From a virus (taxonomy: Duplodnaviria > Caudoviricetes): DNA of 64,000 nucleotides. Of this stretch, positions 21,109-59,341 are shown in pieces. Under the pieces are notes generated by a model. The model did not search any database and was not told the origin of the DNA. It worked only from the letters and a program-made list of their open reading frames with translations. Position 1 is the stretch's first letter, and every line of letters begins with the position of its first letter. Made by a program: the position numbers and the translations under genes. The DNA is taken from the IMG/VR virus record IMGVR_UViG_3300025401_000648; one strand, written 5' to 3'.

Positions 21109-22155
21109 TTATTTGTGTTGGCTTACAATTTCAGGCTTAATTATGGCCTGTATGCCGTAAGCATCGTTAGTCCATACAACTAGGTTTTTCAGGGCTGTTA
21201 TAGTCAACATACTGTCTAATCTCTTTTGTGCTTGTCGAACTTCGTCGCCCACTAACCAAGGATATGCTCCAACTCTGCTGGTAATAATTTGTTGACTTTC
21301 TGGATCAGCAATCATCTTTCGGGCCGCGGCAATCAATCTATCCTTGTTGGGGTTATTTTTATTGACCCAAATAACTTTTTGTAATACGTCCCTATAGCTT
21401 TTGACCAATAGCCAAGCATCGTAAAACTCGCCACTAGGATCTTTGCCCCATTTGGCCTTATATGCTTCGTTAAATGTACTTTGGCCCTTGGGAAAGTTTG
21501 TATCTGAAATTAACTTGCCTGTCTTAATGTCCATGAGTCCTGCTGAGAACCATGTTTGATTAAATGCCAATGGTTCAATTTGTTGTTTGTAGAGAAAGGG
21601 ATTTTCTCTAGTAACATTTAGCTCGCCTCTGATAAATCCCAGTGCTGTTTCAGAATTTTTCATACCCCGAACATAGATAACATGTTTACGAAAACAATCC
21701 AAATAGTCTGCCATCTTGGGCAACGGTCCACAAACCATCATGGTTATGGCCATGGCATCAGGATTCATACCAGACCCTGCGGCAAACTTGATGATGTTTT
21801 TGTAGGGGTCCTGTGTTTTATTATAGCTCACAATGATAGTTTGATTTTGTGCTAGGATAGGTTCATAGTCGTTAAAATTAAACTTAACATCTTCTAGTAG
21901 GTATGCTTCTGCTTGCCCGCCGTTGCTGTACCACATATAGGAGTCATCATAACGATATTTTTCTGCCCATTTGTTGCCGGCAGGAATATCTCGAGCGCCC
22001 TGTATAATTTCTGATCGAATAGGCTCGCCCAAGGCCTTGGCCAGTTCTGGAATAACCACAGTGGGCCACCCGGTGGCGCTGGGTACTACCACAGTCATAT
22101 CTGCCAGTGCCAAATTACAGGCACAGAATAAAATAATTAGTAAAAGTTTCTTCAT
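21109..22155 (-). CDS. Periplasmic substrate-binding protein, TctC-like (tripartite tricarboxylate transporter)
   Basis: Signal peptide MKKLLLIILFCACNLALA; adjacent to TctA; GELNVTRE segment. Confidence 0.6.
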   Translation of the reverse strand: MKKLLLIILFCACNLALADMTVVVPSATGWPTVVIPELAKALGEPIRSEIIQGARDIPAGNKWAEKYRYDDSYMWYSNGGQAEAYLLEDVKFNFNDYEPILAQNQTIIVSYNKTQDPYKNIIKFAAGSGMNPDAMAITMMVCGPLPKMADYLDCFRKHVIYVRGMKNSETALGFIRGELNVTRENPFLYKQQIEPLAFNQTWFSAGLMDIKTGKLISDTNFPKGQSTFNEAYKAKWGKDPSGEFYDAWLLVKSYRDVLQKVIWVNKNNPNKDRLIAAARKMIADPESQQIITSRVGAYPWLVGDEVRQAQKRLDSMLTITALKNLVVWTNDAYGIQAIIKPEIVSQHK

Positions 22156-22161
22156 TTGTCC

Positions 22162-23619
22162 TCAATGATAGTTAATGGTTGTGCGGTTAAAAAATAACCC
22201 GTATACTAGTATTATTACACCAAAAGCAAGCAGACACAAACTAATTGGATGATGCAGGAGATCTTGAAATTTATACAGTGCCAAAAATTGCCCTGTGGTT
22301 AGTTCCAATCTATGACTAAGAGTAAAGCCTATGATAAAACTGATCCTACTGATTTTGAAATATTTAAAACATAGTCCCACTGCGGTCATTATGGACAATA
22401 TGGCATAATCCTCCCAGCCGCCTGTATAGTCGACGCAGGACCAAACAATCAAGGCAATCAAAGGGGCCGCCCAATACTTAAAGGGCACACGGGTTATTGC
22501 TGTGGCATATTTTATGAACGCTATACTGATAAAAAATGTTAGAACCAAACTTAGCATGAAACCAAAACTCAAGGCATCAAAAAATTTGTGATTTGACAGC
22601 AGTGTTTGGCTTCCTAGATCCAATCCCACATAGGCCAGTAGGCTCATAACCACTGCTTCAAAAGGAGCCGCAGGTACACCAAACAATACCGTGGGCACAT
22701 AGGCAGTGGCCTTTTGAGCCAGTGTGGCACCCTCAGGACCAATTACACCTTTGACATTGCCTGATCCAAAAGGCATGGTTTCATTTTTGTTTGTGGCCAC
22801 AGTTTGTCCATAGCTTAACCAATCCACAATAGCCCCGCCTATACCAGGCAGTATACCAATTACCCCACCTATGATTCCACCTCTGACACTGATCCATCGG
22901 TTCGCCCACCAATCCCCAAATCCTTGTCGTATTTGTAGCCAATTATCTTGAGATGACTGTAGGTATGTGGTTTTAATTCTAACAGCGTTTATGATTTCAG
23001 GCAGTGCCATCAACCCTGCCATGACTGGAGCAAATTGTATACCATCGGCTAGATAAAACCAGCCACCAGTAAATCGTTCAGCGTTAGTCACAGGATCAGT
23101 ACCAATCGATCCAGCAAATATACCCAATACCAGTCCCAGTATACCTCTTGCCCAATACTGACTGCTTAAGAAACAGATGCTGGTAACAGCCAAGATTAAA
23201 AATGCCCACTGTTCAGGTATACCAAAACTCAACACCACATTGGCATAGTAGGGCAATAGTAAAATAGTTAACGTTCCCCATACTACGCCCTGACTCACTG
23301 AACTAAACACACTGGCACTCATGGCTCTGGCAGCTTCACCGCGTTGAGCCATGGGATATCCATCCACCATGGTGGCAGCACTACCCCCGCCTCCTGGTAT
23401 GTTCATGACCACACTGGCAAACAGATCGCCCACACTGGCTGATACAACCACGGCAGTGGTAAACACAATAAGACTGTAGGGGTCGCCTCGGAAATAGGAT
23501 ATAAAACTATAGATAGTCAGCAAGGCTGTGCCGGCACCTGCCACAGGAATAATGCCAAACACAAATCCATATAGAGTGCCCAATAACAGCCAAGGTGTAT
23601 ATTGAATTACAAAGTCCAT
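22162..23619 (-). CDS. tctA: Tripartite tricarboxylate transporter permease TctA
   Basis: Polytopic; IPGGGGSAATMVDGYPMAQRGEA, GTDP, GILPGIG, GVIGPEGA, LFGVP. Confidence 0.88.
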   Translation of the reverse strand: MDFVIQYTPWLLLGTLYGFVFGIIPVAGAGTALLTIYSFISYFRGDPYSLIVFTTAVVVSASVGDLFASVVMNIPGGGGSAATMVDGYPMAQRGEAARAMSASVFSSVSQGVVWGTLTILLLPYYANVVLSFGIPEQWAFLILAVTSICFLSSQYWARGILGLVLGIFAGSIGTDPVTNAERFTGGWFYLADGIQFAPVMAGLMALPEIINAVRIKTTYLQSSQDNWLQIRQGFGDWWANRWISVRGGIIGGVIGILPGIGGAIVDWLSYGQTVATNKNETMPFGSGNVKGVIGPEGATLAQKATAYVPTVLFGVPAAPFEAVVMSLLAYVGLDLGSQTLLSNHKFFDALSFGFMLSLVLTFFISIAFIKYATAITRVPFKYWAAPLIALIVWSCVDYTGGWEDYAILSIMTAVGLCFKYFKISRISFIIGFTLSHRLELTTGQFLALYKFQDLLHHPISLCLLAFGVIILVYGLFFNRTTINYH

Positions 23620-24155
23620 TATCTAAGACGCCACTCAGCGTAGATTCGATTGGTTTGATCCCATCGCAATTCCACAATTTTAAAACCAAACACATCGGCA
23701 AGTCTAATATGTTCTTCAAAAGACCAAGGATAAAAATCAATTAGTTCAGTTTCCACAGCACCGTGGTCTTGGACTCCAGGATTACAACGCCAATATATTC
23801 TTCCCTTGGGTAACAGTAGATTTTTTACTAGGCCAATTTGATTTTCTATGGTTTCCCTTGATCCAAAGTTTATGCTGCCAAGACAAAATGCCACATTGAA
23901 CTGCTCTCGATTGACTCGAGCAAATTCCTCCAAGGTCAGTCTATGATCTGCCTCATCAAAAGCAGGATCTATGCCTATTAGATTAGGTATAAGTTTTTTG
24001 AAATGATTTCGACCACAACCAATGTCTATAACTTGCTCATTGGCGTTAATACGACTGGCCAGTTGTAGCCCAGAATAAATGACCCTGTCTATGTTGCTGA
24101 TAGGCAGTGTGCTCCAGACTTCTCTGAAATAATGTGTTAGTTCCTGTTGATTCAT
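23619..24155 (-). CDS. Class I SAM-dependent methyltransferase-like protein
   Basis: VIDIGCG, IGID, FNVAFCLGSI, LLPKGRI. Confidence 0.7.
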   Translation of the reverse strand: MNQQELTHYFREVWSTLPISNIDRVIYSGLQLASRINANEQVIDIGCGRNHFKKLIPNLIGIDPAFDEADHRLTLEEFARVNREQFNVAFCLGSINFGSRETIENQIGLVKNLLLPKGRIYWRCNPGVQDHGAVETELIDFYPWSFEEHIRLADVFGFKIVELRWDQTNRIYAEWRLR

Positions 24156-24754
24156 GCAATCCGTACATGTGTGTCATTGGCAATGAAATCTAAAAATTCT
24201 TTTGGCGGGGTGATGCCAAGAATTCGGCATAGTTCATGATTGTCCCTGATGTCATTACCTGTCCAATATTTTAACAGACAATAGTTCTGAAGAGCAATAT
24301 GTTTGGACATCGTGTCTAAATCTCGATAGAATTGATAGTTGGGATAGGTGATATTGAATTCACCGCATTTTATCCACCAATCCAAACAATCGCGGTCATT
24401 ACGGTAGACTAGAACTATGGGGCAGTCGGGCCAGTTAGCCCTCAAAAAATCTATATGATAAACAAAATGATGACAGCGTATGATGCGTATACCCTGTCCT
24501 GAGAAGGGGCGATCAAATTCTGCCTCGCACTGTTCAGGCGTACGATCACTGAGTCGATCAAACCATTGCCCAAATTCCATGCCTGGATCAAAGTATGAAC
24601 CACCATGAAACCCCGAAATAATTTCGGTACCCGCATGACTGTAGGTGCGATCCTCAGTATAGTCGGTGCTGTCAATGTCCACACTGTCTTTGATCAGTCG
24701 TGGTATACTGCTCCACCTAGAGCCTGGGGCGCCGGTTACAAAGATATATTTCAT
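24152..24754 (-). CDS. P-loop sulfotransferase-like protein
   Basis: IFVTGAPGSRWS and IVLVYRNDRD resemble PAPS-binding motifs. Confidence 0.5.
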   Translation of the reverse strand: MKYIFVTGAPGSRWSSIPRLIKDSVDIDSTDYTEDRTYSHAGTEIISGFHGGSYFDPGMEFGQWFDRLSDRTPEQCEAEFDRPFSGQGIRIIRCHHFVYHIDFLRANWPDCPIVLVYRNDRDCLDWWIKCGEFNITYPNYQFYRDLDTMSKHIALQNYCLLKYWTGNDIRDNHELCRILGITPPKEFLDFIANDTHVRIA

Positions 24755-24762
24755 ATCTTTAC

Positions 24763-26043
24763 TTATTGCGGGGTATCAGCTGTGGGTAAATTATCTGGAA
24801 GGGTTAGGCTACGATCTAATTCAGATCCACGTTTATGCTGACTGAGAATTTCAGGAATATTGAACACACTGTAACTATATTGTTTGACCGTGGTCTTCAT
24901 GGTTGTGTAAGTAGCACATTCAGTTTGATAAAGAGTTTCAAAATTTGTCATGGCCCAACGTTGAAAATCTTCAGTGTTATAAAATGCTTGAAAATTATTG
25001 CCCAGAGTGTTTTTATTCATACGGACTAGATTATCCAAGTGCATTTGGTATTTGAATATGAATCTAAAGTAGCCGGCCAGTTGATATGCGTATTCAACTG
25101 TCATAGGAAACTGACTTAATTTTGGAGCCACAGCAGAATTATACAGTGCTTGACTCACTGCGGTATCACATTGATGTATTCTAGAATGATTACTTACAAA
25201 ATAGTCTTCTGCGGATAGATATTTGTCCGAATCATTCACGGGTGATTTATAAAAGTCATCAATTCTCGAATCGCCCACACTGCCTTGATGACATTTAAAA
25301 AATCTCTTGCCCAAACTAAAATTGTGCTGTAGTACGGGAAACAGTTGATCATTACAGTCACCAGTGATCACAGTCCTATTGCTTACCGGTTGTTTTAAAA
25401 AGTCAAAATGTGAGGGCATTGCATCATTAATAAGATAATTGTTCAAAGGCAGACAATCAAAATTTTGTCGTACATGGTCGTACATCTCAGGAAATTCTCT
25501 TTGGCTGTTGGCATCAAAGGCCACACTGAATTTAATATTGTTTTTGACCAAGGCAGCAAGTATGGCTGTGGAGTCAATACCTCCGCTCCACATGACCACA
25601 GGATTCAAATTAGCATAGCTACCAGCAGTCTCATCCATGATCTCTGCGTAGGTCTTGGCAGTGTAAGTGTCAGACGGTATGGTAATTGGTGATCCGGATA
25701 AAAATATTCCTGAACGGTCAGTGAAATTATCAGCAGGGTATCTACGCACAGGCAACAAGATCAAGGACCTATAGATTTGATTGAATTCTGAATCATTTTG
25801 AATACATTCAGCATCTAATGCCAAATCTGACATTTCTCTGTCGTCAGTGACGTCATATATGCTGACCAACTGTGTTCTTGGATCCTGAAGATCTCCCAAT
25901 AATACCAAATCCACAGGATCAGTGAGTACAGTGGCAGCAGGTACATAGGTCAAAATATTACCCATATAGACCTTGATTTCGTAGTCCTGGGCATTGGATA
26001 GTGACGCAACCTGCTGACGAAGAAGATCTAATGTATCTGACAT
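24763..26043 (-). CDS. N-type ATP pyrophosphatase (asparagine-synthase/QueC-like) protein
   Basis: VMWSGGIDST PP-loop, TGDCND. Confidence 0.7.
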   Translation of the reverse strand: MSDTLDLLRQQVASLSNAQDYEIKVYMGNILTYVPAATVLTDPVDLVLLGDLQDPRTQLVSIYDVTDDREMSDLALDAECIQNDSEFNQIYRSLILLPVRRYPADNFTDRSGIFLSGSPITIPSDTYTAKTYAEIMDETAGSYANLNPVVMWSGGIDSTAILAALVKNNIKFSVAFDANSQREFPEMYDHVRQNFDCLPLNNYLINDAMPSHFDFLKQPVSNRTVITGDCNDQLFPVLQHNFSLGKRFFKCHQGSVGDSRIDDFYKSPVNDSDKYLSAEDYFVSNHSRIHQCDTAVSQALYNSAVAPKLSQFPMTVEYAYQLAGYFRFIFKYQMHLDNLVRMNKNTLGNNFQAFYNTEDFQRWAMTNFETLYQTECATYTTMKTTVKQYSYSVFNIPEILSQHKRGSELDRSLTLPDNLPTADTPQ

Positions 26044-50325: not shown

Positions 50326-53310
50326 ATGACTATTTTATCACACAACACCTACGATTCAATACAAACAACTGCTAGTATGGTATTGTCTTCGTACTATGGA
50401 AATGCTATACAATCATCTGTAATCAGCGCAGGTGCTTCAATTAAAACATCAGATTGGACCAAACTTTATAATGATTTGGATGCTTGTCTAACTCACCAAA
50501 CAGGCAATCATGTGGCATTTCCCTGTATCACTACTGGTAGTATTATCCGACAGGTGTTTGTAAACAGCCTAACCAATGTGGCCAGCACTGTATATGCCAA
50601 TCGATCTAATGCCATTAACACTCAGTTGACATCACAGCCTACTACCTCTGTTAGAACCACAACCTGGGGCAGTGATATAGCACACCGAGTTGAATACAGT
50701 TGGAACTCTGTTGGCGATGTGGCACACTTTTTTCAAACTGGTGGATATATAGTTCCAAGTTTGGCCATAGCAGTTAATAATCTAAGTAACACACTTAATA
50801 TCAATTGGTCGCAGTTGATTACCAGTACCTACAATGACTTTAATTTTCAAAATTATATCTTTGATTTGGCCACGTATCTTAATCCCCCAGCGGCCTACGT
50901 AAACAACAATATCAATATAGGCACTATCACTGTAACCTATACATTTACCACACCAACAACATTGGTAGCTTCAATAGTATTTCATCCGGAAGGGGACTAT
51001 CTATCAATATTGGTATTACCCACCGCAGGGTTCACTACCTACAAATCCAGTGGAGCTGTATACGCTCCGGCAACCAGTGTTCAATTAATTGAGACATTGG
51101 ATGTGGGTGGTGCCTCACTGTATCCTTCTTTATATTTCCATCCAATCGCAGCCAATACTGTAAACCAATTGAGCACCGGCACAGTGTCTGTTCTAGTTAC
51201 CAACAGCGGCACTGGATACTGTTCAATCAGTAATCTATTGTTTACACCAGATCCCGCAAGCAATTTTACCACATACCATATCAGTATCAGCACAGCCACC
51301 ATACAGGCAGGGGCATCTGCCACTTTGACTCTACAGTATGGTACTACCAATTCTGCGCAAGGCACGTACAACAACAATTCTATCACAGTAGTCAGCAACA
51401 ATGTTAATGGAAATGCCAGTGCCACATTCCAAAGCATAGTTACATTTCCCATCTTTGCTGTCAATATCAGTCCAGCTACATTGACTAGTACCTTGACCAC
51501 TAGTAATGCTGTGATACAAAATTTTGCCTTCAGCGCCGGAGCATCTGGTGTTGTCCAAAGTATCACTGCTAGTTTGACCACAAACACAAACTTTGGTCTG
51601 TACCTTAGTCAGCCTATGGATACCCCAGAAATCATATATGTAGAAAGTTTTGGTGGATTTTTTGGTGGGTCGGATTTTGTTATCAATGTCATACCTTCAA
51701 AACATTTTCCTGGCAGCATCAGCACAGTGTTTACACCACCACTGCCAGCCATAAACTATTCAAATACAGCCAGTACTGTGCCACCACCCACATCCATCAC
51801 TGGTAACTACCCTACACAATTACTGGCCACATTCAATCCGGTGGACAATAGACAAACTCCTGTATTTGTTTCAATACCAATAGATTATACGTTGAACATA
51901 CAAAATCAACATCTGGGTAGTTGGTTGAGTCCTCGAGACTATACCAATGCCATAGCAGGGTTCAGTTATGATGTTATAGAAGGTCAAAAATATCTAACCA
52001 TAGGGTTTGGCATGGGTGGTGATGGTAGTCCTGAATTATACAATAGTGGTACAGCCTTTGTATCTGCTAGTACATTAGGAATTGGTGCTGATGTCAAGCC
52101 TGGAGCAGGTATTGCTCTTTATCCTTCTACAACTGGCACAAACTATGGTTCATTTTTACAGACATACGGTGCTTGGATCACACCTAATGGTGGTAATGGA
52201 TACAACACAGATCTAATTGTGGATTATGAATTTTTTGTTCCGACTAGTGGGACTTATAATTTTGAGTTCAGTGCTGACGCGACTGGACAATTATCTATCA
52301 ATGGAGTGTTGGTAGCCGATTGGTCAGATCCTACTAGTTCGATTACTGGATATACTAATCTAGTAGCAGGCATAAACACAGCCACTATTATATCTAATGC
52401 CTATGCCAATACCAATAATCAATCATTATACGCAAGTGGTGGAGCATTAAGTAGTAGTACTGTGGTCTATATTGGGCCCGTTTACGAAACAAAAAATAAT
52501 ACCACAACTATTATCTCAGGAACTTCTAGTAGCGGACTCGGTAGTTTTGGCGTAACAATCAGTGATTTTGGCGGTACAGTGTGGTGGAGCACACTAACGC
52601 CACAACGTCCTGCCCTTCAGCCAGCCTATGAGTTTTGGGGAGAAGTTTACAGAATTCCAATTTCAGGAGATGCTCGCACATACAACAGTGGTGATTATCC
52701 TGTTAAACTAACAGACTTTGCTGGTGGAAGAACCTATGGTAGTTTTTGTGGCACGGGTACTAATGCTGGTTCTGCGTTTACAATTATTGATGATGGCAAC
52801 GGTAATTTGAATGTAACATTCAATCCCTGGCCGGCAACAGCTTCAACAGGATTTTCAGCAGTTGATATAACATTATCCCTATTCCAATATCTACCATACT
52901 ATTATGAAAATATTCTAGCACGTATTTTAAATTTAGAAGCTCCGTTTGATAATGCTCAATACACACATTATTTTACGGGATTTGGCAATGATGGTGCTGT
53001 AAGAACCAGTACAGTGCCGTTTCCAAATCCCATAGTAATAAATGGTGTTCTAGCTGTGGCAGGGGTAGGTGGCACACAACATCTATCATTTTTACAAACT
53101 GCTGTACAAGACTTGATTCAGGTAGGTACTATTGCCTTAGAAGTAGGCGGCGCCGCTGTGGGAATCACAGCATTGGCAATCGCAGCCGGACTTACTGACG
53201 CTATTGGAGCCACGGTAGGCATTGCAGCCGTCACTGGTGGTTCTATCGCAGGTGGTATTGTAGGAGCCGCTACAACTGTTATTGAAGTACTATCATTCTG
53301 TGGCTTTTAA
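50326..53310 (+). CDS. Large virion/tail protein with PA14-like module and hydrophobic C-terminus
   Basis: T/S/N-rich; FVPTSGTYNFEFSAD..G.LSING..V; Ala/Gly/Val/Ile C-terminal helices. Confidence 0.65.
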   Translation: MTILSHNTYDSIQTTASMVLSSYYGNAIQSSVISAGASIKTSDWTKLYNDLDACLTHQTGNHVAFPCITTGSIIRQVFVNSLTNVASTVYANRSNAINTQLTSQPTTSVRTTTWGSDIAHRVEYSWNSVGDVAHFFQTGGYIVPSLAIAVNNLSNTLNINWSQLITSTYNDFNFQNYIFDLATYLNPPAAYVNNNINIGTITVTYTFTTPTTLVASIVFHPEGDYLSILVLPTAGFTTYKSSGAVYAPATSVQLIETLDVGGASLYPSLYFHPIAANTVNQLSTGTVSVLVTNSGTGYCSISNLLFTPDPASNFTTYHISISTATIQAGASATLTLQYGTTNSAQGTYNNNSITVVSNNVNGNASATFQSIVTFPIFAVNISPATLTSTLTTSNAVIQNFAFSAGASGVVQSITASLTTNTNFGLYLSQPMDTPEIIYVESFGGFFGGSDFVINVIPSKHFPGSISTVFTPPLPAINYSNTASTVPPPTSITGNYPTQLLATFNPVDNRQTPVFVSIPIDYTLNIQNQHLGSWLSPRDYTNAIAGFSYDVIEGQKYLTIGFGMGGDGSPELYNSGTAFVSASTLGIGADVKPGAGIALYPSTTGTNYGSFLQTYGAWITPNGGNGYNTDLIVDYEFFVPTSGTYNFEFSADATGQLSINGVLVADWSDPTSSITGYTNLVAGINTATIISNAYANTNNQSLYASGGALSSSTVVYIGPVYETKNNTTTIISGTSSSGLGSFGVTISDFGGTVWWSTLTPQRPALQPAYEFWGEVYRIPISGDARTYNSGDYPVKLTDFAGGRTYGSFCGTGTNAGSAFTIIDDGNGNLNVTFNPWPATASTGFSAVDITLSLFQYLPYYYENILARILNLEAPFDNAQYTHYFTGFGNDGAVRTSTVPFPNPIVINGVLAVAGVGGTQHLSFLQTAVQDLIQVGTIALEVGGAAVGITALAIAAGLTDAIGATVGIAAVTGGSIAGGIVGAATTVIEVLSFCGF

Positions 53311-53410: not shown

Positions 53411-53989
53411 ATGACTGATATTGCGAACAAGCGAGGAATGGACAAGGTTGAGATACCACGTTCGATTCTCACATTTATTAATCTGATGTTCATGAGTATA
53501 TTGCTATGGGGATCAGTTACTCTACTACAATGGGCATGTGATACTAAATTTGCCCATGCCAAGGCAGTAGAAACCAGCGACATTACCGCTGAATTTAGAG
53601 AACACCAATTAGGATGTTTAGCTAAAAATATATATTATGAAGCAGGCAGTGAACCATTTGAAGGCAAAGTGGCAGTAGCACAAGTTACCTTGAACCGTGT
53701 AAACAGCGGGCAGTTTCCCAATGATGTATGTAAGACTATATACCAAAAAAGTGTAGTCTATGAAAAAGTTATTTGTCAATTTAGTTGGGCCTGTGATAGG
53801 GCAGTTAAATTTAATCCTATTAACAAAAACAACTACGATGAAAGCATGATTGCGGCACAAAAAGTCTTGTTAGAAGACTACAGGCTACCAAGCCTACATG
53901 ACGCACTTTACTATCATGCGGACTATATTAATCCGCATTGGGGTAAGGAAAAAGTAGCAAAAATTGGTCATCATATCTTTTACAAATAA
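53411..53989 (+). CDS. SleB-like cell-wall hydrolase
   Basis: CLAKNIYYEA..E...GKVAVAQVTLNRV..FP..VC..IYQ..QFSW, IGHHIFYK; N-terminal TM. Confidence 0.9.
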   Translation: MTDIANKRGMDKVEIPRSILTFINLMFMSILLWGSVTLLQWACDTKFAHAKAVETSDITAEFREHQLGCLAKNIYYEAGSEPFEGKVAVAQVTLNRVNSGQFPNDVCKTIYQKSVVYEKVICQFSWACDRAVKFNPINKNNYDESMIAAQKVLLEDYRLPSLHDALYYHADYINPHWGKEKVAKIGHHIFYK

Positions 53990-54333: not shown

Positions 54334-54344
54334 CTAAATACTTG

Positions 54345-54599
54345 ATGCGAATAAATGAACTATTAGAAAAGAAACTGCCTGCCCCCACACAAAGTCAATG
54401 CGATGTGAGGGCAAGTAGACTTTCCAATGTAAGGTATGCCCAATGTGTTGGTATGGGTATGCGAGCTCACGACACAGATCATACAGATGGTACTGGTCGC
54501 CAAGGCGTCAAAGGCAGTGGCCGCAGTCAAAACGGACGCAAGATTAAAAGCAAAAAGTATGGTGGCCCTAATACATATTGGCCCGGCAGTAGAAAATGA
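54345..54599 (+). CDS. Basic hypothetical protein
   Basis: TAAATA (54335-54340) 4 nt before ATG. Confidence 0.6.
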   Translation: MRINELLEKKLPAPTQSQCDVRASRLSNVRYAQCVGMGMRAHDTDHTDGTGRQGVKGSGRSQNGRKIKSKKYGGPNTYWPGSRK

Positions 54600-54919
54600 T
54601 TAGCATCACAGAAGCAGCCAAAGAAAAAATCAACGACATATTATACCAAGAAAAGAACCCCAATGCGGCATTGAGAACATTTGTTCAAGGTGGCGGTTGT
54701 AGCGGATTCCAATACGGTTTTACTCTAGAAGATGTACAAAATGAAGATGATTTTGTGTTGGATACCGGAGTGTTCAAAGTACTTGTTGATGCCATGAGCA
54801 TGATGTATATGGAAGGCGCTGTAATTGATTACAAGGAGGATTTAATGTCTAGCCAATTTGTAATCAATAATCCCAATGCTATTAGCCAATGTGGATGCGG
54901 TAGTAGTTTTTCAGTATAA
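54596..54919 (+). CDS. erpA: A-type Fe-S carrier ErpA/IscA
   Basis: GGGCSGFQYGF and NPNA...CGCGSSF. Confidence 0.92.
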   Translation: MISITEAAKEKINDILYQEKNPNAALRTFVQGGGCSGFQYGFTLEDVQNEDDFVLDTGVFKVLVDAMSMMYMEGAVIDYKEDLMSSQFVINNPNAISQCGCGSSFSV

Positions 54920-54930
54920 AGGATAATACG

Positions 54931-55716
54931 ATGAAATTTGATATGATGGACATAGAAAAAATGGCTGAGGAAAATGACTCGGTCAACGAGCAAGTTACAG
55001 CATTTGTCAATAAAATAGAAGCTGATAACGAAGTACTATTTGATGTATCAGAAAGACAAGTCAAAAACTTCTACATGAATCATGGAAACAAGGATTTGGT
55101 AAAACACTTTACTAGTCGCATGGTCAATGAGCGTATGAACATGACTGAGTTAGCCAAACAGATTGCCAATGCTGATGCTGGCATGGATCCAAAAGAATTA
55201 CAGTTGCTGGCTAAGCAGGCCTTGGATGAGGCTAATCATTTCCGTATGGTCAAAGATGTAGTTGAACATTTGAATGGCGGCCCAATTGATGTTAAAGAAT
55301 TCGTTGAATGGGATCAGGCCAATAATGTCAGCTCAAAAGGTGCCAAACTTATTGCCAAATATGATTGCGATAATGATGAAATGGCCATGGCACTTTATCA
55401 ATTCATCTGTGAAGGTCGTGCCGCACGTAACTGGTTCATGATGTCCACATGTGTTACCGATCCATTCATTGCCAATACCTATGCTAGAATCGCCCGTGAT
55501 GAAAAATTCCATTCAAAGATTGGACGTCGCAAACTAATGCAACTTTGTGATACTCCAGAAAAACAAGCACGTGCCTTGAAGATTGCCAATCAAATGCGAA
55601 TTGATCTATATGAAATCAACTGTAGCGGATCTGGAGAGATGCCAGGCACTCGTGAGCTAATTGAACAGGCCTACGGCAAGGCAGAAGAGTTTGAAAATAG
55701 CAATCAGCCAGCGTGA
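54931..55716 (+). CDS. Ferritin-like diiron-carboxylate protein
   Basis: E...DEANH...E...DEKFH four-helix ligand pattern. Confidence 0.8.
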   Translation: MKFDMMDIEKMAEENDSVNEQVTAFVNKIEADNEVLFDVSERQVKNFYMNHGNKDLVKHFTSRMVNERMNMTELAKQIANADAGMDPKELQLLAKQALDEANHFRMVKDVVEHLNGGPIDVKEFVEWDQANNVSSKGAKLIAKYDCDNDEMAMALYQFICEGRAARNWFMMSTCVTDPFIANTYARIARDEKFHSKIGRRKLMQLCDTPEKQARALKIANQMRIDLYEINCSGSGEMPGTRELIEQAYGKAEEFENSNQPA

Positions 55717-56239
55717 ATCTGTTATAGGCGGTAGTGCTCTTAAACACGACTGCCTAGCACAAGTTTGGTACAAGTTTTTAAGCAAACATCAAATCATTCC
55801 CATCCCTAATGTGGATGTAGATTATGTCTACGATTTTGACATGCTGATATTAAGTGGCGGGAATTTTAGTTTTCCCAGGTTCCATACAGAATTAAAATTA
55901 TATAATCATGCCATGGATAACAATCTGCCCATATTGGGAGTTTGTCATGGCGCATTTTTTATTGCCGAGTTAACTGGTGCCCATTGCGAGGATATTGACG
56001 GCCATAGAGGCTTTGACCATGTTATTGAACTAGAAGGTGAAGAAGTGGTTGTTAATAGTTGGCACGGTAGTACCATTAAGTCTTTGGGTCCAGACTATAC
56101 TGCTATTGGTGTAGACAGTGAGAATAACATAGAAGCATTCAAACATAACTATAAACCTATTTGGGGTTTGTTATGGCATCCAGAAATCATGGTTAATCCT
56201 GTGTTGCCTAAAGAATTGGCCGAACTCCTAAAAATTTAA
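55691..56239 (+). CDS. Class I glutamine amidotransferase (peptidase C26/PuuD-like)
   Basis: LILSGG, GVCHG nucleophile, VNSWH, WHPE; TTG start MKIAISQR. Confidence 0.85.
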   Translation: MKIAISQRESVIGGSALKHDCLAQVWYKFLSKHQIIPIPNVDVDYVYDFDMLILSGGNFSFPRFHTELKLYNHAMDNNLPILGVCHGAFFIAELTGAHCEDIDGHRGFDHVIELEGEEVVVNSWHGSTIKSLGPDYTAIGVDSENNIEAFKHNYKPIWGLLWHPEIMVNPVLPKELAELLKI

Positions 56240-56241
56240 TA

Positions 56242-57690
56242 ATGAACAATCACTGCCTAATACTGAGCTCCAAGCACATTTATGACCACGGTAGAAATGT
56301 TGGTGCTTATAGCATAGCTTCTCATTTAAGAAGGAATGGATGGGATTGTACGGTTGTGGATTATTTTCTACAATGGAAACAATTAGAACTTATTGAGTAT
56401 TTAGAAAAACATATTACTAATGATACCAAGTGGGTTGGAATTTCTTACACATGGTTGTTCAATCAACGAAATACCAATGAGGCACTACCCACCATACATA
56501 ATCTAATTCAGAACATAAAGAAAATTAATCCTAATGTATTGTTGATAGCTGGTGGACAGAGTCCTTACGAACAAGACCTAGGTGTTGACTATTATATCTA
56601 TGGGTATGCTGAACATGCCATACTTAAGATATTGGATTATGAGTTTAATGATGGCGCCCCTGTATTTTACACAAAATTATTTGGAGGCAAATTAGTTGAT
56701 GCCATGCATAACTATGCGTCTTACAATCTACCAACCTATACAATAGACTACGAAGATACTGATTTTATTTCTAAGGGAGATGTACTTAGCGTAGAGTTTA
56801 GTAGAGGTTGTAAATTTAAATGTGACTTTTGTACATTTCCTTTTATAGGTATCAAAGAGGATACATCAACTTCTGAAGAACTGCTGTATAGAGAGTTAAT
56901 GACCAATTATCACACATGGGGTGTCAAAACCTATATTGTCGCAGATGAAACAGTCAACGATAGAATTGAAAAATTAATCAAGATTAAGAATGTGGTAAAC
57001 CGCTTGGACTTTAAACCAGATTTTACAGCTTTTGCTAGAGTAGACTTATTTAGAAGTCACCCCGAGGCAATTGAACTCATGGCAGAATGTCGTATTTGGG
57101 GACATTATTATGGGGTTGAAACATTTAATCAAAAATCTGGTAAAGTCATTGGCAAGGGTCAAAATCCTGAATACATAAAAGAATCATTACTTAAAGTCAA
57201 AGATTATTTCCAAAAGAATTTGGGGCAATATCGAGGTACAATAGGTATGATTTGTGGCTTACCGCACGAATCACTTGATAGCCTTCGTGAGTCATACAAG
57301 TGGCTAGTGGAAAACTGGAGTGATCAAAACGTCATTTGGTGGCCACTACAAATTGTTGATAACGGTAATTTATCAGCAATGGGTAAAGATTTTGCTAGTT
57401 ACGGATACAAAAAATTAGATGTAAACGCAAACACTCACAGATTATCAACCCTGGCATTGAACAATACAGAAATCTATTGGGAAAACGAATATACCAACAT
57501 ATTTGAAATTGATGAACTTATCCAAACAGAATTCACTCATAAATTCTATTTTGATAATTTTAAACTTTGGTTTTTGTTGCCTTACGCAGAATATGAAAAA
57601 TGTAAAAACTATCGAGATGGCGATGTCTGGGCTAATCTAGTACATCAAGCCAAAATACAAGAATACATCAATAATAAAAAACATTCTTGA
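56242..57690 (+). CDS. Cobalamin-binding radical SAM enzyme
   Basis: N-terminal B12-binding-like domain (GAYSIASHL, IAGG), SRGCKFKCDFC (CxxxCxxC), YGVET, MICGLPHE. Confidence 0.85.
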   Translation: MNNHCLILSSKHIYDHGRNVGAYSIASHLRRNGWDCTVVDYFLQWKQLELIEYLEKHITNDTKWVGISYTWLFNQRNTNEALPTIHNLIQNIKKINPNVLLIAGGQSPYEQDLGVDYYIYGYAEHAILKILDYEFNDGAPVFYTKLFGGKLVDAMHNYASYNLPTYTIDYEDTDFISKGDVLSVEFSRGCKFKCDFCTFPFIGIKEDTSTSEELLYRELMTNYHTWGVKTYIVADETVNDRIEKLIKIKNVVNRLDFKPDFTAFARVDLFRSHPEAIELMAECRIWGHYYGVETFNQKSGKVIGKGQNPEYIKESLLKVKDYFQKNLGQYRGTIGMICGLPHESLDSLRESYKWLVENWSDQNVIWWPLQIVDNGNLSAMGKDFASYGYKKLDVNANTHRLSTLALNNTEIYWENEYTNIFEIDELIQTEFTHKFYFDNFKLWFLLPYAEYEKCKNYRDGDVWANLVHQAKIQEYINNKKHS

Positions 57691-57746: not shown

Positions 57747-59060
57747 ATGTATCAAATCATTCAAGAGCTTGAAGCAGACAACAGCCGTCTTGCCAAAGAA
57801 GCAATTATTTTCCGTGAAGCACAAGCCAACAACGTGGAGTTCTTTGAAGGACTTCGTTTGGCATTTGACCCCATGATCACATTTGGTGTTAAGAAAGTGC
57901 CCACACATGGTGGCGGTGAAGGACAGGGTTTGCCATGGGCGGCCTTCAAGGAACTGTGTTTGGGATTGAGCCGTAGAGACTTTACTGGACATGCGGCGCG
58001 TGATGCCATTGAGTTGGCCTTGAGCGCCAGCACTAAGGAACAATGGAATGGCTGGTACCGTCGTATTCTTATCAAAGACATGCGAGCAGGTTTTGGTGAA
58101 ACCACTGTGAACAAGATGGTTGAAAAAGCACAACATCCTGAATTTGCTATTCCCTTATTTGAATGTATGTTGGCGCATGACGGTGCCAAGCATGAAAAGA
58201 AAATCACAGGCAAAAAACTACTGGAACCCAAGTTAGATGGTGTTCGAGTTATCACTGTGATCAACGCAGGTAATAAGACAGCCACAATGTACAGCCGTAA
58301 CGGCAAGTTGTTGGAAAACTTCACGCACATTACCACAGCCATTGAAGCAAATATTGACCTATTTGAGCGTAGCATGGTGCTGGATGGTGAAATGGTATCC
58401 AGCTCATTCCAAGCACTAATGAAACAGGTACATCGTAAGAGTGATGTACAAAGCGAAGACGCACGTCTAATGCTGTTTGATATTCTACCAATGACTGAGT
58501 TCCAAGCAGGTGTCAGCACCATGGGACAACGCCGCCGTAGCAATCTACTCAAGAGCATGAAAGATACGTTTGATAAGATTGGTAGTATTGACATTATTCC
58601 ACAAACAGAAGTAGACTTGGACAGTTATGTGGGTGAGCTGGAATTTAAACAGTATAACAAAGATGCTATTAAAGCTGGCTACGAAGGCATCATGATCAAG
58701 GACATTGATGCTCCCTATGAAGCCAAACGCAGTGCCAGCTGGCTCAAGATGAAACCTTTTATTGAAGTTAGTTTGACAGTTACCGCAGTGGAAGAAGGCA
58801 CAGGCAGAAATGAAGGCAAACTAGGCGCCTTTATCTGTGAAGGACAAGATGATGGACTTCAAATTCAAGTCAATGTTGGCTCAGGGTTCAGCGATGCCCA
58901 GCGTAAAGACTTTTGGGATAGCAAGGACACCCTGGTGGGACAGATTGTAGAAGTTAGAGCAGATGCGGCCACTAAGAACCAAGACAGCGAAGAAGTTTAT
59001 TCTTTGCGTTTCCCACGCTTCCTCAGATTCCGTGGATTCCTAGCAGGCGAAAAACTCTAA
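57747..59060 (+). CDS. lig: ATP-dependent DNA ligase (gp30-like)
   Basis: EPKLDGVR, LDGEM, EGIMIK, WLKMK, LRFPRF; start reassigned to ATG 57747. Confidence 0.93.
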   Translation: MYQIIQELEADNSRLAKEAIIFREAQANNVEFFEGLRLAFDPMITFGVKKVPTHGGGEGQGLPWAAFKELCLGLSRRDFTGHAARDAIELALSASTKEQWNGWYRRILIKDMRAGFGETTVNKMVEKAQHPEFAIPLFECMLAHDGAKHEKKITGKKLLEPKLDGVRVITVINAGNKTATMYSRNGKLLENFTHITTAIEANIDLFERSMVLDGEMVSSSFQALMKQVHRKSDVQSEDARLMLFDILPMTEFQAGVSTMGQRRRSNLLKSMKDTFDKIGSIDIIPQTEVDLDSYVGELEFKQYNKDAIKAGYEGIMIKDIDAPYEAKRSASWLKMKPFIEVSLTVTAVEEGTGRNEGKLGAFICEGQDDGLQIQVNVGSGFSDAQRKDFWDSKDTLVGQIVEVRADAATKNQDSEEVYSLRFPRFLRFRGFLAGEKL

Positions 59061-59099
59061 GACGAGTAAATAATTCTTTAAAGGAGATGGTAGTACATC

Positions 59100-59318
59100 G
59101 TGGCAAAGCAAGATAGTATCGAAATGATGGGCGTGGTCGAGGAAACACTGCCTAATAGTATGTTTCGAGTTAGATTAGAAAATAATGCTCTAGTATTGGG
59201 GCATATCAGTGGCCGTATACGCCAAAATAAAATCCAAATCCTACTTGGTGATCGGGTGCGTACAGAAATTAGTCCCTACGATTTAACCAAGGCAAGAATA
59301 GTTTTTAGAGAAAAATAA
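59100..59318 (+). CDS. infA: Translation initiation factor IF-1
   Basis: [12 protein letters not shown]...GHISGRIR...ILLGDRV..E.SPYDL. Confidence 0.95.
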
Positions 59319-59341
59319 AAAAGCCCCATTAGGGGCTTTTT
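59318..59341. terminator. Bidirectional intrinsic terminator
   Basis: AAAAAGCCCC-ATTA-GGGGCTTTTT between convergent genes. Confidence 0.85.

Follow-up and report, generated by a model that had tools for sequence, protein, structure and literature searches.

Does a tight run of five phage genes encode one pathway, or has it gathered genes that elsewhere go separate ways? The question is raised by a locus in a 64,000-nucleotide stretch of viral DNA (IMG/VR record IMGVR_UViG_3300025401_000648; the whole stretch is called the window below), in which five plus-strand open reading frames (ORFs), all co-directional and overlapping or nearly abutting, were confirmed from the ORF list at positions 54345–57690. 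They encode a small basic protein, the A-type iron-sulfur (Fe-S) cluster carrier ErpA, a ferritin-like diiron-carboxylate protein, a stand-alone class I glutamine amidotransferase (GATase) and a cobalamin (B12)-binding radical S-adenosylmethionine enzyme (rSAM). An earlier sequence-only reading had taken the five, coupled behind one TAAATA box, for a self-contained pathway with its own cofactor delivery. Its gene identities, including the two ExxH motifs of the ferritin-like protein, were borne out by family scores and invariant residues; the junctions are tight, the box is invariant in relatives, and the co-directional string extends beyond these five (Table 1). The pathway itself fared less well, and we consider it likely that the stretch is a mosaic of separate accessory units occupying one variable slot.

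Linkage of the five genes in other viruses

Homologues of the window's rSAM (34–55% identity) were found at 26 IMG/VR loci. Within 8 kb of the rSAM, none of the 25 other loci carried ErpA, the ferritin-like gene or the GATase; the neighbours there were other radical SAM enzymes, cupin hydroxylases and unknowns. Neighbourhoods of the ferritin-like gene and of ErpA were counted over the best 80 viral loci for each. ErpA was near the ferritin-like gene at none of the 80 ferritin loci, three of which carry a 28%-identical rSAM about 7 kb from the ferritin-like gene. When rSAM genes near ErpA were sought by phmmer with eight diverse rSAM seeds, any radical SAM ORF fell within 5 kb at 4 of the 80 ErpA loci. 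On the scale of whole genomes, the rSAM family lies 50–70 kb from the ferritin-like/GATase pair in two large records, one complete viral record (383 kb) has a B12-rSAM homologue 7 kb away from the pair, and no ferritin-like gene was seen in five large rSAM-bearing records (35–67% complete). Among the lineages examined, the full five-gene set was not found outside the window's own phage population, and only here does the pair lie between ErpA and the rSAM. The sequence-only reading had named unlinked genes in other genomes as one outcome that would speak against it. The neighbourhood comparison returned that outcome, and the one-pathway interpretation is largely refuted on its own terms.

The ferritin-like and GATase genes are a genuine unit. 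A GATase homologue occurred within 8 kb of the ferritin-like gene at 74 of the 80 viral loci. Within 6 kb, the two were adjacent on the same strand (41 loci, often overlapping), adjacent and divergent (19), or separated by one to three genes (13); the pair was thus directly adjacent at 60 loci, with three arrangements overall. Adjacency was retained in 14 of 16 ferritin lineages defined at 70% identity.

Clustering of the neighbours at these 80 loci showed that the pair usually travels with a gene of a viral sulfotransferase-like family (70 loci), a methyltransferase-like gene (64) and TctA (23), and more rarely with TctC, TctC-like proteins and PhoH; the sulfotransferase-like label comes from the Atlas, and that of TctA from Pfam on a homologue. 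Homologues of the companion genes were present at 53–64 of the 80 ferritin loci, versus 0–1 of the 80 ErpA loci. In this phage the companion locus sits 30 kb from the pair, while in four of the five nearest ferritin-like relatives (L027, L028, L029 and L031; 58–88% identity across the five) the companions are directly upstream of it. The fifth, L033, has kept only the sulfotransferase-like gene, downstream of the pair. The operon-like companion set is contiguous with the pair in most other phages. A comparison with L027 and L028, which share 88% identity with the window in the ferritin-like protein and only 62–63% in the adjacent GATase, suggests recombination inside or beside the pair. In many phages (L031, L033, L034, L036, L037, L045 and L049) two tandem ferritin-like paralogues precede the GATase. 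The 47 family members aligned, among them pairs of proteins with longest recorded contigs of equal length, all retain the six diiron ligands.

Contents of the variable slot

The backbone order endolysin, membrane protein, basic protein, slot, DNA ligase, initiation factor 1 (IF-1) homologue, HNH endonuclease was recovered in 11 related lineages, whose records are fragments (3–17% complete). The endolysin and membrane protein genes are syntenic in L115, L125, L189 and L001, and the endolysin also in L119. The slot of the window holds ErpA, the ferritin-like gene, the GATase and the rSAM. ErpA and the rSAM fill the slot in L115 (rSAM 68% identical) and L119 (55%), and are preceded by a second carrier on the opposite strand and IscU in the L116/L118 lineage (58–59%). 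A contig from ENA (61%) has the rSAM only; L122, L125 and L189 have ErpA only; and in L001 (55%) the rSAM is located 5' of the basic protein. L134 carries a different, 655-amino-acid B12-rSAM on the opposite strand, two ORFs and ErpA, and L200 an O-FucT-like (glycosyltransferase) gene, DUF6071, a second carrier, a 469-amino-acid IscU-like gene and ErpA. Outside the window, the slot therefore contains ErpA in eight lineages, this rSAM family in five and the ferritin-like/GATase pair in none. Against this background the pair reads as a 1.3-kb insertion, and would be a mobile two-gene unit that joined the slot in this phage alone, landing between ErpA and the rSAM.

Two of these slot genes deserve a comment of their own. 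The B12-rSAM of L134 (1952–3919, minus strand) has no tblastn-detectable similarity to the rSAM of the window. The 469-amino-acid ORF of L200 (3543–4952, minus strand), which lies beside two A-type carriers, matches NifU_N (IscU) in two separate stretches and may be an IscU split by an insertion such as an intein.

The basic protein had no match in Pfam, PHROG or NCBIfam. It was considered as a substrate of the rSAM and rejected in that role, since it is retained in L125 and L189, relatives that lack the rSAM; it is therefore not an rSAM-specific partner. It is a backbone gene of the clade, and in the mosaic interpretation it would belong to the conserved backbone that flanks the slot.

ErpA scored 143.8 bits against the NCBIfam equivalog NF010147 (cutoff 117) and also matched Pfam Fe-S_biosyn. 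Its cluster-binding cysteines, one central (C35) and two in a C-terminal CGC (C99 and C101), are invariant in six sequences, and homologues are encoded at no fewer than 147 viral loci. ErpA lies directly 5' of this rSAM in four lineages, with IscU added in one. This adjacency may go back to one ancestral arrangement with later losses, so the four lineages would not count as independent events. As the usual resident of the slot, ErpA plausibly passes [4Fe-4S] clusters to phage Fe-S enzymes, which would include the adjacent rSAM when one is present. The earlier suggestion that the locus brings its own cofactor delivery thus stays plausible for the Fe-S cluster, and the idea of such service is known in kind, being already in print (PMC5332604).

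The rSAM belongs to class B but to none of the named subfamilies. Pfam recognized an N-terminal B12-binding Rossmann domain (PF02310, 41.8 bits; cutoff 32.1) and Radical_SAM (58.8 bits), and the cysteines of the CxxxCxxC motif (C190, C194 and C197) are invariant in 57 sequences. Its AlphaFold2 (AF2) model has a predicted local distance difference test score (pLDDT) of 91.2, and the top Foldseek matches of this model were TsrM, OxsB, CysS and TokK (E-values 5e-16 to 1e-12). None of the named NCBIfam subfamilies was reached: the best, PhpK, gave 61.7 bits against a cutoff of 600, HpnR, BchE, BzaD and others scored lower, and the protein fell outside the MCR methylases. A sequence search of the PDB with the rSAM returned nothing useful. 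The family is almost confined to viral or metagenomic contigs, and the gene would be an optional passenger of the slot, drawn from this virus-dominated family. About 8 kb upstream lies an Asp/Arg beta-hydroxylase-type cupin gene (Table 1), and the same Pfam family adjoins rSAM homologues elsewhere.

The ferritin-like/GATase pair and the alternative explanations

In the ferritin-like protein, the ligands E67, E100xxH103, E161 and E191xxH194 are invariant in 47 aligned homologues and make up the classical set of two histidines and four carboxylates (E, ExxH, E, ExxH) on a four-helix core. The start was set at 54931, which gives the MKF N-terminus common to relatives. The AF2 model is helical (pLDDT 90.6) and its fold similarities are generic: many diiron and related helical bundles were matched about equally well (VIA Z-scores of 12–16 over about 200 residues), CADD with 15.8 and TenA, HrmI, UndA, aldehyde-deformylating oxygenases and PaaC with 13–15, a range common for helical bundles that denotes the fold class only. 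Named families in Pfam and NCBIfam were not reached (PaaA_PaaC 17.6 bits, cutoff 28.5; DUF455 18.6 bits, cutoff 34.3), and there was no AurF, ribonucleotide reductase (RNR) or Ald_deCOase match in either. Sequence searches of the PDB with the protein or its profile found no match, and a fold search of BFVD found no close viral model; these PDB and fold searches yielded no close relative that is solved or named. The many Arg, Lys and Tyr residues that are invariant point to a possibly anionic substrate.

Homologues of the ferritin-like protein are encoded on at least 223 viral stretches, and its Atlas cluster has 719 members, 98% of them viral. Its two most conserved motifs matched one of 185,579 species-representative genomes. 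Judged by this distribution, the family is almost virus-only. The sole species-genome match is a 17.7-kb contig (CALCPD010000071.1; L121) that was binned into a Nitrosopumilaceae metagenome-assembled genome and again has the GATase next to the ferritin-like gene; the contig may be viral and wrongly binned, or may belong to a virus that infects this archaeon. The automatic Atlas name, RNR small subunit, was rejected: the proteins are too short (231–265 amino acids) and have no RNR match in Pfam. The radical tyrosine of R2 lies after the first ExxH, and no Tyr occurs at that position here, which also disfavours the name.

The GATase starts at the TTG at 55691 rather than at 55661, which agrees with the called 182-amino-acid protein and with its relatives. 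Above-cutoff Pfam matches were GATase (53.6 bits) and Peptidase_C26 (54.3 bits), and the Cys-His-Glu triad (C85, H163 and E165) is invariant in 42 sequences. The best NCBIfam model, gamma-glutamyl-CDP-amidate hydrolase, scored 84 bits, under its cutoff of 250, and in the PDB the GATase profile came closest to GMP synthase subunit A of archaea (64.9 bits), ahead of PuuD (37 bits).

The data establish the gene identities, the catalytic residues and where the genes are or are not linked, whereas the chemistry of all these genes is inferred. For the pair, we propose that both enzymes would act on one nitrogen-bearing carboxylate, with hydrolysis of glutamine, or of an N5-substituted form of it, by the Cys-His-Glu enzyme and an O2-dependent hydroxylation or N-oxygenation at the diiron centre, in a scheme formally like that of DnfA and DnfC, enzymes of direct ammonia oxidation. 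A specific version of this scheme, in which the pair would be a two-component enzyme peculiar to viruses whose diiron centre uses nitrogen derived from glutamine, either as a functional analogue of DnfA/DnfC or as a glutamine-dependent aminating or N-oxygenating oxygenase, strikes us as a long shot.

Several observations weigh against a mosaic. The gene arrangement of the window is stable across many bog-lake metagenomes, and a sulfotransferase-like family adjoins the rSAM in some phages and the ferritin-like pair in others, a weak and indirect link between the two. The five genes overlap or nearly abut without a terminator-like site between them; joint expression is therefore probable, and a shared role could have arisen in this phage. 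Most of the viral records compared are fragments (3–67% complete), so that absence from a locus does not prove absence from the genome. In the rival reading, a single self-contained pathway in this phage, ErpA would load the rSAM, which together with the diiron enzyme and the GATase would alter one base, amino acid, lipid or metabolite in successive steps. Tight co-directional coupling behind one conserved TAAATA box, stability of the arrangement in many samples and the complete 383-kb record with the pair close to a B12-rSAM homologue all speak for it. Yet no other lineage examined has the set linked, the conserved companions of the pair are elsewhere in the same genome, and close relatives hold ErpA and the rSAM without the pair, which leaves the single pathway quite improbable. 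With a mosaic of units as the preferred account, the alternatives that remain concern the pair itself.

In one of these, the GATase would supply ammonia as one subunit of a two-part amidotransferase, with the PP-loop ATPase of the distant companion locus as the synthetase; the ferritin-like, methyltransferase-like and sulfotransferase-like enzymes would tailor the same carboxylate, imported by way of TctA/TctC, and the position beside ErpA and the rSAM would be incidental. Archaeal GMP synthase subunit A, the best solved relative of the GATase, pairs with a PP-loop subunit. The PP-loop gene of the window has an SGGIDS motif, in several loci such a gene separates the ferritin-like and GATase genes or flanks them, and the companion genes are frequent at ferritin loci. 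Nevertheless, PP-loop homologues occur in only 7–9 of the 80 ferritin loci, far below the 74 of 80 for the ferritin-like/GATase link, and the window's own copy is 30 kb distant; we regard this arrangement as fairly unlikely. Alternatively, the pair could be a viral counterpart of DnfA/DnfC: the diiron enzyme would N-oxygenate glutamine at its amide nitrogen, and the GATase-type enzyme would then release hydroxylamine or another N-oxygenated product. The two-enzyme make-up, a diiron N-oxygenase with a glutamine amidotransferase, is the same (PMC13753816; PMC9136411), and the GATase is nearest to a hydrolase of N5-substituted glutamine. Set against this, the ferritin-like protein has no match to the AurF/CmlI family (PF11583), AurF-type structures are absent from the top 50 fold matches, and the string (53.4–59.3 kb) contains no DnfB-type reductase gene. 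AurF-type N-oxygenases also have three histidine ligands, compared with the two conserved here, and altogether we hold a counterpart of DnfA/DnfC to be very unlikely. The dnfT1 and dnfT2 genes are of the aminotransferase type (PMC9136411) and are not Tct-type transporters, and the Tct genes therefore lend the Dnf analogy no support. An O-methyl phosphoramidate pathway was rejected as well, its one footing, the likeness to Cj1417, being sub-threshold; no glutamine kinase or cytidylyltransferase occurs among the annotated neighbour families.

The gene string, its phage and comparison with known systems

The co-directional string runs from the endolysin (53411) to the IF-1 homologue (59318), is preceded on the plus strand by a gene for a 994-amino-acid tail-fibre-like protein and is followed by a convergent HNH endonuclease gene. 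Junctions across the five genes are, from 5' to 3', −4, +11, −26 and +2 nucleotides, the third being the overlap of the GATase gene with the ferritin-like gene. No plus-strand terminator-like site was found in the string upstream of the hairpin at its end, and the string is probably co-transcribed.

Table 1. Positions in the window of the genes and signals discussed in the text.
Feature	Position	Strand	Basis or remark
Distant companion locus: PP-loop ATPase, sulfotransferase-like, methyltransferase-like, TctA, TctC-like	21109–26043	−	tblastn
PP-loop ATPase	24763–26043		SGGIDS motif; part of the companion locus
Asp/Arg beta-hydroxylase-type cupin, 178 amino acids	47900–48436	+	
Cell-wall hydrolase (endolysin)	53411–53989	+	Pfam Hydrolase_2; upstream backbone
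Membrane protein, 110 amino acids	54001–54333	+	Upstream backbone
TAAATA box, possible late promoter	54335–54340	+	4 nucleotides 5' of the start codon of the basic protein
Conserved basic protein, 84 amino acids	54345–54599	+	81–85% identical in relatives L115 and L119; alternative TTG start at 54342
ErpA-type A-type Fe-S cluster carrier	54596–54919	+	NCBIfam ErpA equivalog, Pfam Fe-S_biosyn
Ferritin-like diiron-carboxylate protein	54931–55716	+	Six invariant ligands
Stand-alone class I GATase / peptidase C26-type, 182 amino acids	55691–56239	+	Pfam; Cys-His-Glu triad
Class B (cobalamin-binding domain) radical SAM enzyme	56242–57690	+	Pfam B12-binding and Radical_SAM
Downstream backbone: ATP-dependent DNA ligase, IF-1 homologue, hairpin	57747–59341	+	Pfam DNA_ligase_A_M, eIF-1a
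IF-1 homologue, 72 amino acids	59100–59318	+	Pfam eIF-1a, 80.6 bits; position kept in clade relatives
Palindromic terminator-like hairpin	59318–59341		End of string

The TAAATA box is invariant in five of five relatives, within a spacer that is otherwise variable, and its distance to the ATG of the basic protein is always 4–5 nucleotides in the window and its relatives. CTAAATA also occurs 20–25 nucleotides 5' of the ORF starts at 50326 and 60274; across the whole window, none of TAAATA, CTAAATA and TATAAATA is enriched. The box is probably functional. The geometry of T4-type late promoters would place the transcript start at or beside the ATG of the basic protein, and no Shine-Dalgarno sequence was found between the box and that ATG. 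This spacing suggests a leaderless or near-leaderless late transcript, which is of note beside a phage IF-1 gene.

The source of the window is an uncultured freshwater jumbo phage, about 240 kb in size, which turns up repeatedly in lake samples. Seventeen contigs, of up to 241,628 bp, encode a GATase protein identical to that of the window, the gene order is identical on several Joint Genome Institute (JGI) freshwater metagenome contigs, and at least 22 freshwater metagenome runs contain at least half of the sampled words of the stretch. DNA and protein searches of GenBank phages (50,697 records) gave no match for the region, the rSAM or the ferritin-like protein, and only weak matches, at 26–28% identity, for the GATase.

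If, as we think likely, the five-gene operon is not a new pathway, what is of value is the ferritin-like/GATase pair together with the wider island of PP-loop, sulfotransferase-like, methyltransferase-like and tricarboxylate-transporter genes with which it usually travels. The pair is widespread and almost virus-only, occurring on more than 220 aquatic viral contigs; its catalytic residues are intact and it has no characterized relative. Its chemistry would reveal a small molecule that abundant aquatic phages make or alter during infection. Were the glutamine-nitrogen diiron version to prove true, hundreds of lake and ocean phages would carry a previously unrecognized nitrogen-oxidizing or N-tailoring activity. 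The locus is in addition a clear natural example of a recombination-prone slot that gathers Fe-S assembly genes beside Fe-S enzymes.

With regard to known systems, T4-like environmental viral genomes were found to encode A-type carriers (ATC) and IscU together with many viral rSAM genes, and service to virus-encoded Fe-S proteins was proposed (Nishimura et al., 2017; PMC5332604). Our locus shares with those viruses an ErpA/IscA-type carrier alongside rSAM enzymes and the same proposed role, and clade relatives of the window also add IscU and a second carrier. It differs in the constant place of ErpA in the backbone, which in four lineages is immediately 5' of a class B rSAM; over the 80 viral ErpA loci, however, such adjacency is rare (4 of 80). 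The earlier statement that no comparable set was known in a phage is thus only partly right, the combination of carriers and IscU with many rSAM genes having been published. The rSAM itself has the N-terminal B12-binding Rossmann domain, the CxxxCxxC core and the overall fold of TsrM, OxsB, CysS and TokK, but is only 12–16% identical to them. Likewise, the ferritin-like protein shares the helical-bundle diiron fold and the E/ExxH/E/ExxH ligands with PaaA/PaaC, aldehyde-deformylating oxygenase, CADD and UndA, whereas at the sequence level it is a member of none of these families.

The GATase matches Cj1417, from the O-methyl phosphoramidate pathway of Campylobacter, over nearly its full length (a profile of 198 positions against 182 amino acids) and shares its triad, while scoring 84 bits against a cutoff of 250. 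DnfA and DnfC are thought to act on glutamine-derived nitrogen (PMC13753816; PMC9136411), by one of two mechanisms that are under debate (PMC13753816). As in the DnfA/DnfB/DnfC system of Alcaligenes, a diiron oxygenase gene adjoins a gene of the class I glutamine amidotransferase type. In the phage, on the other hand, the diiron protein is not of the AurF/CmlI type by Pfam, a gene for a 2Fe-2S reductase is lacking, and the GATase is nearer to the Cj1417 and GMP synthase subunit A types. The likeness is one of composition rather than of shown homology; among functional precedents for the pair, DnfA/DnfC is the nearest.

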